Of a DNA stretch of 64,000 bases, positions 61,501 to 64,000 are shown piece by piece. The DNA lies in the NCBI RefSeq assembly GCF_988242995.1, contig NZ_OZ547043.1, one strand, 5' to 3'. The stretch's first letter is position 1. Each line of letters opens with the position of its first letter. The translations under genes were made by a program, and so were the position numbers. The notes below the pieces were generated by a model. It saw only the letters and a list, made by a program, of their open reading frames with translations. It was not told the origin of the DNA and searched no databases.

Positions 61501-62502
61501 CACCTGAAAATCACCTTCCGCGTGGTGGATGACAAAAACAAGAAGCTAAAAGAAGGGCGCTCTCTACAAGGTCTGAAAGATGCGCTGAAAGACAAAGTGC
61601 AGGAAACGCTGTCTGCGGTGGCGGATGACGGTATCGAGCAGAGCGGCTTACATATCTGGAGTTTTGGTCAGCTGCCGGAAAGCTACGAACAGAAGCGTGG
61701 CAACTATAAAGTGAAGGCGTGGCCAGCGCTAGTGGATGAACGCGACAGCGTGGCGATCAAACTGTTTGATAATCCGCTGGAACAAAAGCAGGCAATGTGG
61801 AACGGTCTTCGCCGTCTACTGCTGCTGAATATTCCCTCGCCAATCAAATATTTGCATGAGAAGTTGCCAAACAAAGCCAAGCTGGGGCTGTACTTTAACC
61901 CGTATGGCAAAGTGCTGGAGCTGATCGACGACTGTATCTCCTGCGGTGTGGATCAACTGATCGACGCCAATGGTGGCCCGGTCTGGACGGAAGAAGGCTT
62001 TGCTGCGCTGCATGAAAAAGTCCGCGCTGAACTGAACGACACGGTGGTGGATATTGCGAAGCAGGTCGAGCAAATCCTTACTGCAGTCTTCAATATCAAC
62101 AAACGCCTGAAAGGGCGGGTGGATATGACTATGGCGCTGGGGCTTTCTGACATCAAAGCGCAGATGGGCGGGTTGGTGTATCGCGGTTTTGTCACTGGCA
62201 ACGGTTTTAAACGGCTGGGCGACACGCTGCGTTATTTGCAGGCGATTGAAAAACGACTGGAAAAACTGGCGGTTGATCCGCATCGTGACCGTGCTCAGAT
62301 GCTGAAAGTCGAAAACGTCCAGCAGGCGTGGCAGCAATGGATCAACAAACTGCCGCCCGCACGTCGTGAGGATGAAGACGTGAAAGAGATCCGTTGGATG
62401 ATAGAAGAGTTGCGCGTTAGTTACTTCGCTCAACAACTTGGTACGCCTTATCCGATTTCAGATAAGCGTATTTTGCAGGCGATGGAGCAGATTAGCGGTT
62501 AA
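58600..62502 (+). CDS. hrpA: ATP-dependent RNA helicase HrpA (DEAH-box)
   Basis: 1300 aa; Walker A GETGSGKTTQ, DEAH motif (IIIDEAHERS). Confidence 0.95.
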   Translation: MTEQQKLTFTALQQRLDSLMLRDRQRFLRRLHGVKKVKNPDAQQAIFQEMAKEIDQAAGKVLLREAARPEITYPDNLPVSQKKQDILEAIRDHQVVIVAGETGSGKTTQLPKICMELGRGIKGLIGHTQPRRLAARTVANRIAEELKTEPGGCIGYKVRFSDHVSDNTMVKLMTDGILLAEIQQDRLLMQYDTIIIDEAHERSLNIDFLLGYLKELLPRRPDLKIIITSATIDPERFSRHFNNAPIIEVSGRTYPVEVRYRPIVEEADDTERDQLQAIFDAVDELSQESPGDILIFMSGEREIRDTADALNKLNLRHTEILPLYARLSNSEQNRVFQSHSGRRIVLATNVAETSLTVPGIKYVIDPGTARISRYSYRTKVQRLPIEPISQASANQRKGRCGRVSEGICIRLYSEDDFLSRPEFTDPEILRTNLASVILQMTALGLGDIAAFPFVEAPDKRNIQDGVRLLEELGAITTDEQASAYKLTPLGRQLSQLPVDPRLARMVLEAQKHGCVREAMIITSALSIQDPRERPMDKQQASDEKHRRFHDKESDFLAFVNLWNYLGEQQKALSSNAFRRLCRTDYLNYLRVREWQDIYTQLRQVVKELGIPVNSEPAEYREIHIALLTGLLSHIGMKDADKQEYTGARNARFSIFPGSGLFKKPPKWVMVAELVETSRLWGRIAARIDPEWVEPVAQHLIKRTYSEPHWERAQGAVMATEKVTVYGLPIVAARKVNYSQIDPTLCRELFIRHALVEGDWQTRHAFFRENLKLRAEVEELEHKSRRRDILVDDETLFEFYDQRISHDVISARHFDSWWKKVSRETPDLLNFEKSMLIKEGAEKISKLDYPNFWHQGNLKLRLSYQFEPGADADGVTVHIPLPLLNQVEDSGFEWQIPGLRRELIIALIKSLPKPVRRNFVPAPNYAEAFLGRVTPLELPLLDSLERELRRMTGVTVDREDWHWDQVPDHLKITFRVVDDKNKKLKEGRSLQGLKDALKDKVQETLSAVADDGIEQSGLHIWSFGQLPESYEQKRGNYKVKAWPALVDERDSVAIKLFDNPLEQKQAMWNGLRRLLLLNIPSPIKYLHEKLPNKAKLGLYFNPYGKVLELIDDCISCGVDQLIDANGGPVWTEEGFAALHEKVRAELNDTVVDIAKQVEQILTAVFNINKRLKGRVDMTMALGLSDIKAQMGGLVYRGFVTGNGFKRLGDTLRYLQAIEKRLEKLAVDPHRDRAQMLKVENVQQAWQQWINKLPPARREDEDVKEIRWMIEELRVSYFAQQLGTPYPISDKRILQAMEQISG

Positions 62503-62528: not shown

Positions 62529-62559
62529 AACCCGGTAAGCATTTAGCGCCGGGTTTTTT
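62529..62559 (+). terminator. Intrinsic terminator downstream of hrpA
   Basis: aacccgg-loop-ccgggtt hairpin followed by T6; IS200 copy B begins in or directly after the T-tract. Confidence 0.5.
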
Positions 62560-63270
62560 GTGCACAGAAAACCCCCAGCTAGGCTGGGGGTTCCGGAAAG
62601 CTTTCAGCTTTGAGCCAGTTATTAAAACCCCTTTTGATTTGTTAAAACACTTTGCGGTCTGGCAACTGCAAGTGTCAAACAAGAAATCAAAAGGGGGTCC
62701 CAATGGGGAACGAAAAGAGCTTAGCGCACACCCGATGGAACTGTAAATATCACATAGTTTTTGCGCCAAAATACCGAAGACAGGTGTTCTACAGAGAGAA
62801 GCGTAGAGCAATAGGCAGTATTTTGAGAAAGCTGTGTGAGTGGAAAAGCGTACGGATTCTGGAAGCTGAATGCTGTGCAGATTATATCCATATGCTTGTG
62901 GAGATCCCGCCCAAAATGAGCGTATCCGGCTTTATGGGATATCTGAAAGGGAAAAGCAGTCTGATGCTTTACGAGCAGTTTGGTGATTTGAAATTCAAAT
63001 ACAGGAACAGGGAGTTCTGGTGCAGAGGGTACTACGTCGATACAGTGGGTAAGAACACGGCGAAGATACAGGATTACATAAAGCACCAGCTTGAAGAGGA
63101 TAAAATGGGAGAGCAGTTATCGATTCCCTATCCGGGCAGCCCGTTTACGGGCCGTAAGTAACGAAGTTGGATGCAAATGTCAGATCGTGTGCGCCTGTTA
63201 GGGCGCGGCTGGTAAGAGAGCCTTATAGGCGCATTTGAAAAACCTCCGGCTATGCCGGAGGATATTTATT
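62558..63270 (+). mobile_element. IS200-type insertion sequence (IS200/IS605 family), copy B
   Basis: ~713 bp, reverse complement of copy A (33050-33762); the transposases differ at one residue (Tyr vs His in CCAD[Y/H]IHML). Confidence 0.8.
62703..63161 (+). CDS. tnpA: IS200/IS605-family transposase TnpA (Y1 HuH)
   Basis: 152 aa from MGNEKSLAHTRWNCKYHIVFAPKYRRQVFY. Confidence 0.85.
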   Translation: MGNEKSLAHTRWNCKYHIVFAPKYRRQVFYREKRRAIGSILRKLCEWKSVRILEAECCADYIHMLVEIPPKMSVSGFMGYLKGKSSLMLYEQFGDLKFKYRNREFWCRGYYVDTVGKNTAKIQDYIKHQLEEDKMGEQLSIPYPGSPFTGRK

Positions 63271-63443
63271 CTTTATGAATTCTGAAAAATAGCAAGGGCG
63301 GTACTATTTTACATAAGTTACATTCATACTCTGCCCATGGTAAACAGGACGTATTGCAATGAGTAAGCATGATATTTTAATGAGATCGTATTATGAGCGA
63401 ATAATAGAGCTTGATTGCGTCGGTCAGGCTTTAATCTCTTTCT

Positions 63444-63836
63444 ATGAAAAACTTCCAGAGGAAATTTTATCAGAAAGTAATGGATTGGATTAATAGTATG
63501 AAAAATTTAGACAATATTATCTGGCATGATGGTGTTTTAGTAGAAACCAGAATGGAATGTCACCACACCGAGTATAATTTTATATTGACGGCAGAACTTT
63601 ATGTTGATGAATTTACAGCCGGAAGGGAACGAAAAAGGTTCGAGTTTACGGGAGTGGAACATTTATCGCAGGTTATGGATATTGCTGAACTTATAGATAA
63701 CCAAAATGCAGGTAATATTAAAGATGCGGTAATTGTTTATAAGGCAAAGAAGTATGAAATTTCACTTCATTTGTTTGGCGGTTTTTTAAATTTTATATTT
63801 AAAACCATGCGAGTTGTTGACAATGAATTTGAGTAA
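63444..63836 (+). CDS. Hypothetical protein in an AT-rich accessory segment; start uncertain (candidate ATG at 63498 gives 112 aa)
   Basis: Track ORF of 130 aa; an overlapping 44-aa ORF (63359-63493) in another frame suggests a possible frameshifted or degenerate gene; no family recognised. Confidence 0.35.
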   Translation: MKNFQRKFYQKVMDWINSMKNLDNIIWHDGVLVETRMECHHTEYNFILTAELYVDEFTAGRERKRFEFTGVEHLSQVMDIAELIDNQNAGNIKDAVIVYKAKKYEISLHLFGGFLNFIFKTMRVVDNEFE

Positions 63837-64000
63837 TACCAAATGCGACAAATTGTCTTTTTATGAAGAAAAAATCCGCTGGCGAATGCGTCGGCAAATC
63901 TCGAATGCAGAGGCAATATTTTACGAGAATCAGGAAGAACACATTCAGCGCTTTTTAGGCAGATATACCTGCCGCAAACCGGTTCTTGTTTATTGGGAAA
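63826..64000 (+). CDS. Hypothetical protein, 5' fragment running off the window end
   Basis: ATG at 63826 overlaps the stop of the previous ORF by 11 nt; open to the window end (MNLSNTKCDKLSFYEEKIRWRMRRQISNAEAIFYENQEEH...). Confidence 0.3.

Follow-up and report, generated by a model that had tools for sequence, protein, structure and literature searches.

A small, partly decayed island between hrpA and ydcF of Escherichia coli is a probable orphan-immunity locus

Heterogeneous polyimmunity loci are arrays of genes in the same orientation, with short spacers, no interspersed toxins and variation from strain to strain, and several of the published loci, not all, have an adjacent recombinase (Zhang et al. 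2012, PMC3482391). A second described arrangement, the orphan rhs-CT/immunity module, consists of a C-terminal toxin region (CT) demarcated by the motif DPxGL and then a small immunity gene (Poole et al. 2011, PMC3150448; Koskiniemi et al. 2014, PMC3967940). Among single immunity proteins, PIM7 is the cognate partner of PT7, an LXG-linked DNase toxin of Bacillus cereus, which it neutralises in cells and whose active site it occludes (Nachmias et al., 10.1101/2021.10.19.465003). Imm50 is a 'mostly beta' family partnered with the HNH-type nuclease toxins Tox-HHH and Ntox24 (Zhang et al. 2012, PMC3482391), and in Salmonella pathogenicity island 6 (SPI-6) it is found behind Rhs-Tox-HNH-EHHH toxins (PMC10469887). 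The subject of the present analysis is a low-GC island in the spacer between hrpA and ydcF, the left part of which lies at the right end of a 64,000-nt stretch of E. coli DNA (NCBI RefSeq assembly GCF_988242995.1, contig NZ_OZ547043.1), hereafter the window, whose positions serve as coordinates. The region is probably the promoter-proximal half of a small orphan-immunity (polyimmunity) locus that was acquired horizontally and has partly decayed. The acquired interbacterial defence (AID) clusters of Bacteroidales, reportedly described by Ross et al. in 2019, are said to be orphan immunity arrays against type VI secretion system (T6SS) toxins that the host does not make, and to be large and mobile with a dedicated recombinase; nothing comparable in size, mobility or recombinase was seen at the island.

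Past the end of hrpA at position 62502 come a hairpin and T-run (62530-62559), the presumed hrpA terminator, and then a copy of IS200. GC content is 0.51-0.57 in hrpA and drops to 0.33-0.36 between about 63250 and the end of the window, in agreement with an earlier sequence-only reading of this DNA, which had noted an AT-rich cluster of small open reading frames (ORFs) just past this IS200 copy, its copy B. Homology to K-12 stops at about 63287 and returns beyond an island that measures 1524 bp between hrpA and ydcF in two annotated copies, one in strain 98224 (comparison locus L001), which bears the IS200, and one in a locus with the same island and no IS200 (L002). K-12 is without the island; its hrpA-ydcF spacer is 271 bp long, about 128 bp of which is replaced by the island; the sequence-only reading had noted no resemblance to the genes downstream of hrpA in K-12. 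The insertion point is precise, after the hrpA terminator. The whole island has a GC content of 35.9%, compared with 53.6% for hrpA and 52.1% for ydcF, and this low value argues for a foreign origin. Of 5426 complete E. coli genomes, 600 contained near-identical island DNA, always as one copy per genome. The features of the region within the window are as follows.

63288-64000, + strand: left 713 bp of the accessory island, delimited by composition, by mapping of the K-12 junction and by the copies in L001 and L002
63359-63493, + strand: 44-aa ORF (ORF list)
63444-63836, + strand: second ORF, 130 aa from its first ATG; the RefSeq start, ATG 63498, gives 112 aa (ORF list, RefSeq)
63498-63836, + strand: g112 (WP_001523214), predicted orphan immunity protein
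63823-64000, + strand: first 59 codons of g149, from the ATG at 63823 and running off the window end (ORF list; complete in L001 and L002)

The short names g112, g149 and g125 denote the genes of 112, 149 and 125 amino acids (aa), and g130 the gene behind the 44-aa stump. All three ORFs of the sequence-only reading were found as it described them, and extension to the right in L001 and L002 showed that g149 is completed at 149 aa and is followed by g125 and then ydcF, all of which lie outside the window. The island of these two copies consists of the pseudogene stump, g112, g149 (WP_001314706) and g125 (WP_000343026); g112, g149 and g125 are on the + strand and are annotated as 'hypothetical'. 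The spacers are 4 nt between stump and g112, -14 nt between g112 and g149, and 119 nt between g149 and g125. The island thus resembles polyimmunity loci as a tandem of small genes on one strand whose spacers are short or negative, without a toxin-family match in any ORF and with a content that differs between E. coli strains. It differs from them in being small (three to five genes) and visibly decaying and in having no adjacent recombinase, the only mobile element next to it being IS200, which is absent from most island carriers; also, in the E. coli version only g112, by its fold, and g149, by a fusion, can be tied to immunity families.

The g112 protein very likely belongs to a toxin-immunity family. 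Its AlphaFold (AF2) model, with a predicted local distance difference test (pLDDT) score of 93, is mostly beta (eight strands, two short helices) and best matches the solved immunity protein PIM7 (PDB 8owu chain E), the two being assigned to the same fold by the structural test applied. Matches of the model in AFDB50 included two proteins annotated as 'Immunity protein 50', which superposed on g112 with template modelling (TM) scores of 0.86-0.90 at 27-32% identity, and an 'integron gene cassette protein'. At a pI of 5.2 the protein is acidic, as are its toxin-linked paralogues described below; the Rhs-CT is basic. With g112 and the other island proteins, no significant family match was obtained in Pfam, NCBIfam, PADLOC or PHROGs, and sequence searches against PDB yielded nothing for g112, g149, g125 or g130, nor for the g112 family profile at E<=10. 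A word-indexed homologue search with g112 returned proteins of Escherichia and Shigella only, and a narrow alignment of g112 against genome contigs gave no related loci. An exhaustive phmmer search revealed 49 relatives of similar length, so that homologues of the 112-aa protein exist; they have three motifs in common, WHDG close to the N-terminus, ELxDNxxAGNI in the middle and [GD]G in the C-terminal part. Matches obtained with the family profile bore no Pfam labels. The g112 family is therefore best treated as a sister of Imm50 that has no Pfam model of its own and is marked by WHDG and DNxxAGNI. The island gene g125 was tried as a further member and rejected, at a profile-profile probability of 0.4%.

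A degenerate DNA pattern of the two g112 family motifs led to nine genome loci. Three g112 relatives were found downstream of an Rhs-CT. In Citrobacter youngae (L025), the relative lies 17 nt past an orphan Rhs-CT fragment inside a PAAR-rhs locus; the core of the fragment ends in ...NWIDPLGL and is followed by a CT of 126 aa, the Rhs core end being recognised by NCBIfam and a Tox-WTIP at the C-terminal end of this CT by Pfam. In E. coli G3/10 (L034), an orphan Rhs-CT and a 114-aa g112 relative form a module downstream of vgrG-rhs, and this type of pair occurs in 404 of the 5426 E. coli genomes. In Ignatzschineria (L029), the relative follows about 0.3 kb after a decayed homologous CT. The CT of G3/10 is 82% identical to that of Citrobacter, and the Ignatzschineria CT is 61% identical over the part CGKGCRIRID...GRHLHWEC...SHGxDY. 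Two of the three toxin-linked paralogues are thus found directly after one type of Rhs-CT, and this recurrent placement is the strongest evidence for an immunity family. The Rhs toxin domain that the sequence-only reading had proposed to look for exists for paralogues of g112 in 404 other E. coli genomes, and none is adjacent to the island. The CTs, located by their conserved motif, are the following.

L025, 2845-3285: Rhs-CT of C. youngae
L029, 5588-5977: Rhs-CT of Ignatzschineria
L034, 6902-7444: Rhs-CT of E. coli G3/10

The paralogues of C. youngae and G3/10 match the orphan rhs-CT/immunity module exactly; the window island, in contrast, has neither an rhs core fragment nor a CT and lies at an unrelated chromosomal site, and no rhs or cdiA fragments were found in L001, in L004 (Escherichia sp. 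MOD1-EC7003) or in L008 (O157:H7 type). As to the comparison with Imm50, the paralogues of C. youngae and G3/10 lie immediately behind toxin CTs, whereas g112 of the window does not. PIM7 shares its fold with g112. The toxin of PIM7, PT7, is linked to LXG and the type VII secretion system (T7SS) and has a novel DNase fold, whereas the toxin of the paralogues is an Rhs-CT with Tox-WTIP, and g112 itself has no toxin next to it.

The N-terminal part of the Rhs-CT (CGKGCRIRID...GRHLHWEC...SHG[DE]DY) is conserved without a sequence match in Pfam or PDB and is followed by the hydrophobic Tox-WTIP segment, the only part of the CT recognised by Pfam; this N-terminal part may be an uncharacterised toxin domain. 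Its motif CGKGCRIRID...HLHWEC tentatively hints at a metal-dependent nuclease. As a separate observation, when L025 (2492-3285) was compared with L034 (6902-7818), the CTs were 82% identical, yet the proteins in the downstream immunity position are only 44.5% identical, and such unequal divergence of toxin and immunity protein is unusual for a toxin-immunity pair. Environmental g112 relatives were also observed in long same-strand arrays (L017, 6597-10342; L020, 233-7063; L023, 9367-11370), the spacers of which contain attC-like sites (AACAAA, an imperfect inverted repeat, then GTTAGC or GTTATG), and an integrase and IS91 lie near the array of L020. The g112 family also moves as integron gene cassettes, single-gene ones included.

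At 35% GC, the chance of an open frame per start is about 2.5e-4 for 112 codons and about 1.6e-5 for 149 codons; a 44-codon open frame, with a chance of 0.04, is unremarkable. When compared with the orthologues of L008, of L004 and of L003, an Escherichia genome that is more distant, every island gene gave a ratio of nonsynonymous to synonymous substitution rates (dN/dS) of 0.19-0.60, g149 ranging from 0.20 to 0.51 across Escherichia lineages, and in the deeper comparisons the ratio was about 0.2 at a dS of about 1. The dS values of the island genes were close to those of ydcF, and against L003 they were about 1.0 for g112 and ydcF alike. Because dN/dS is low and dS resembles that of ydcF, the island genes are regarded as real and as long inherited with the locus, and relatives at 31-65% identity occur in other genera. 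Judged from these comparisons, g112 is intact and under purifying selection. The overlap of g112 and g149 amounts to 14 nt with the stop codon and to 11 nt without it, the latter being the value given by the sequence-only reading, and it is kept in all lineages. The overlap itself suggests that the two genes are translationally coupled and co-translated from one transcript.

The 44-aa ORF is what a deletion has left of another, separate gene. Its start opens a gene of 130-141 aa, g130, in L004 and in O157:H7, and alignment to these intact copies showed that the window type has lost about 0.29 kb inside g130, so that approximately the first 35-42 codons are left. The intact copies used for alignment are given below.

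L008, 3052-3477: intact g130
L004, 6221-6613: intact g130

Exactly 335 genomes, largely of O157:H7, contained the deleted segment of g130, in each case at >=99% identity, and the stump form was found in the other approximately 265 island carriers; RefSeq likewise flags the 44-aa stump as a pseudogene. The suggestion that the 44-aa and 112-aa ORFs could be one frameshifted gene was rejected, since the stump aligns with independent, intact g130 copies and g112 starts at an ATG of its own (63498) and is of full length in every lineage.

A connection of g149 to immunity proteins was found at another version of the hrpA-ydcF slot, in another bacterium. L011 starts with the last hrpA codons (...LQAMEQISA*), hrpA being otherwise not preserved, and contains a one-strand array of a DUF596 gene, a gene for a protein of 237 aa, an ankyrin-repeat gene, a g112 relative, a 138-aa gene and a g125 relative; DUF596 corresponds to Imm-NMB0513. 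Residues 16-85 of the 237-aa protein are Pfam CdiI_3 (PF18616), and g149 aligns to its residues 99-236 with 36% identity (E 8e-36), so that the protein is a CdiI_3-g149 fusion. No Pfam match, CdiI_3 included, was obtained with g149 itself. A word-indexed search with g149 returned Escherichia and Shigella only, a DNA-pattern scan of metagenomes found E. coli copies only, and no relatives were detected by tblastn against plasmids or in a scan of viral contigs. For g125, a weak full-length match to a PHROG was observed (E 0.0096). A g125 relative at 5938-6390 of L042 (IMGVR_UViG_2814123068_000003) is a cargo gene of 32% GC, lies in the tail region of a P2/Mu-like prophage of 54% GC, and is flanked by a divergent ThsB-like TIR gene (PADLOC E 1e-128, no ThsA nearby) and a gene of the STM2901 family.

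The slot was found in at least four states in E. coli, i.e. empty (K-12), three genes and the stump, four genes, and a cassette of an SMI1/KNR4 gene and a 99-aa gene on the other strand (strain M114). A fifth state, with five genes, was found in L004, where a DUF7021/DUF2262 gene precedes the four island genes, and further versions occur in L011, in L012 (g112-like gene, LprI and a g125 stump) and in L013 (g130-like gene, g112-like gene and a 217-aa gene); g112 is alone in L003. The HrpA proteins of L012 and L013 are about 94% identical to that of E. coli. The DUF7021/DUF2262 gene of L004 (5302-6097) is split by a frameshift into ORFs of 62 and 212 aa; literature on DUF2262 was not found.

If the island is an orphan-immunity locus, the products of g112, and probably of g149 and the other island genes, would act in the cytoplasm and bind a polymorphic toxin domain that a competitor delivers through T6SS/Rhs or contact-dependent inhibition (CDI). 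Each immunity protein would block the active site of its toxin one-to-one, in the way that PIM7 acts on the DNase PT7, and the protected cell itself would not make the toxin. From the analogy to PIM7 and the acidic nature of g112 and its paralogues, we infer that g112 might bind and occlude an incoming nuclease-type Rhs/T6SS toxin. The label 'orphan' is apt, because no toxin adjoins the island. The deletion in g130 and the insertion of IS200 suggest an erosion of the locus where cells no longer encounter its matching toxins.

Several observations weigh against an orphan-immunity locus. Next to the island there is no cognate toxin, and g112 is only 31-37% identical to the three toxin-linked paralogues; because this identity is moderate and immunity is usually narrow, the current target toxin of g112 is unproven. 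By sequence, the partner Rhs-CT matched neither PT7 nor any chain in PDB (E<=10). PIM7 itself shows no sequence-level link to g112, the structural alignments giving 13-14% identity, and the Pfam model Imm50 (PF15594) failed to match g112 even at E<=10 and matched none of 47 aligned family members at E<=0.1. The integron-cassette context of the environmental g112 relatives is not specific to immunity, and neither is that of the 46%-identical g125 relative, which is a cargo gene of a prophage, next to a ThsB-like TIR gene. The link of g149 to immunity is through a single domain fusion only, and its AF2 model has a pLDDT of 39; g130 and g125 have no family assignment in Pfam, NCBIfam, PADLOC, PHROGs or PDB sequence searches. 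A promoter scan upstream of the island revealed no convincing site, with fewer sites than in shuffled sequence. Decay is clear, as g130 is already deleted here, and in the closest comparison, within E. coli, dN/dS of g112 and g149 reaches 0.5-0.6, which hints at relaxed constraint on both genes; because of these ratios and the deletion of one gene, the locus may be dead in this strain.

The same signs of decay are the basis of the most serious competing explanation, namely that the region is a functionally dead remnant of an ancient accessory island, drifting to loss, with ORFs that persist without a role. It would account for the deletion in g130, for the IS200 at the upstream edge, for the complete loss of the island from about 89% of E. 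coli and the mere fragments in other lineages (e.g. L003, L007 and L012), for the dN/dS of 0.5-0.6 of g112 and g149 within E. coli and for the lack of a promoter-like site upstream. We nevertheless consider it unlikely, since three genes are intact and identical or nearly so in hundreds of genomes, the overlap of g112 and g149 is kept in all lineages, and a dN/dS of about 0.2 at a dS of about 1 implies long maintenance by selection. The genes could also be anti-phage defence or phage-derived cargo (morons) instead of anti-toxin immunity, with the small proteins at work in conflicts between phage and host. The main support for this is the g125 relative (46%) in the tail region of the P2/Mu-like prophage, beside the ThsB-like TIR gene; the weak PHROG match of g125 (E 0.0096) and the occurrence of g112 relatives as integron cassettes, a context not specific to toxin immunity, point the same way. 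However, no island protein matched PADLOC, no g149 relatives were found on viral contigs, neither phage structural genes nor integrase genes lie beside the island (L001, L002), and the best structural and contextual links of g112 are to immunity proteins and Rhs toxins, so that a phage-related role appears improbable.

Small, tight, overlapping genes in a low-GC island could also form a toxin-antitoxin cassette, in which one small protein poisons the cell and its neighbour neutralises it. The sequence-only reading had named orphan immunity and toxin-antitoxin side by side; the former is supported, for g112 by fold and context and for g149 by association, and the latter is not, as no toxin or antitoxin family was matched in Pfam, NCBIfam or PADLOC. 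Gene combinations and orders vary (g112 alone in L003, g112-LprI in L012, g149-Ank-g112 in L011), and because no fixed pairs are formed, this explanation was rejected as highly improbable. Relatives of g112 also occur as single-gene integron cassettes, and g130 has been lost with its neighbours intact in about 265 genomes. Hardly any more credible is a functional tie to HrpA, e.g. as modulators of this RNA helicase, which would fit the position of g112-family genes directly downstream of hrpA in Escherichia and in L011, L012 and L013. Most E. coli, K-12 among them, keep hrpA without the island, the hairpin and T-run and here also IS200 separate the two, family members occur in Rhs loci and integrons without hrpA, and the low GC indicates a foreign origin; the synteny with hrpA is explained by an old insertion that was inherited vertically.

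Beyond the orphan-immunity locus proposed here, the 3′ flank of hrpA might be a long-lived polyimmunity hotspot across Enterobacteriaceae, with g130, g149 and g125 as three new immunity families and g112 as a new, integron-spread family of Imm50/PIM7-like proteins (WHDG...DNxxAGNI) neutralising an uncharacterised Rhs toxin domain (CGKGCRIRID...GRHLHWEC...SHGxDY plus Tox-WTIP), a wider proposal that we regard as tentative and rather doubtful as a whole. Literature searches on the hrpA/ydcF hotspot and on the WP accessions of the island found nothing, and the hrpA-ydcF slot as a recurrent home, the g112 family and its pairing with a WTIP-type Rhs-CT appear to be undescribed in the literature searched. 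Orphan immunity genes and polyimmunity loci are already well known, and the island is an undescribed example of them, not a new mechanism. In the gut and other crowded niches, such genes decide which cells survive contact-dependent warfare, and the island is intact in the O157:H7 lineage (335 genomes) and reduced in about 265 other genomes, this lineage included. The fold of g112, together with the Rhs toxin type beside its paralogues in the 404 E. coli genomes, provides a directly testable toxin-immunity pair and opens the question whether strains that lack the toxin already possess a defence against it. It also draws attention to a protein family without a Pfam model and to a conserved chromosomal slot with gene turnover.

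The IS200 copy upstream of the island was located from the RefSeq annotation of the near-identical L001, and its 5′ RNA element was identified with Rfam.

62560-63270, + strand: IS200C copy, with tnpA at 62703-63161
62570-62693: STnc490-type 5′ RNA element of IS200C (Rfam STnc490, an Hfq-binding small RNA; 144.6 bits)

IS200C is inserted between the T-run of the hrpA terminator and the island, and the site is empty in L002. In the window the element stands between the T-run and 'CTT TATGAATTC', and in strain 98224 (L001, 11309-12019) the same element is found 3 bp further right, after 'CTT'. The offset means that the element either was inserted twice, independently, at the same hairpin-proximal spot or underwent a micro-rearrangement. 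Another copy of IS200 was observed at about 33660 on the minus strand. In lineages with the window-type island, ynbB, upstream of azoR-hrpA, is annotated as a pseudogene with an internal stop (L001, 2513-3409; L002, 3212-4108).

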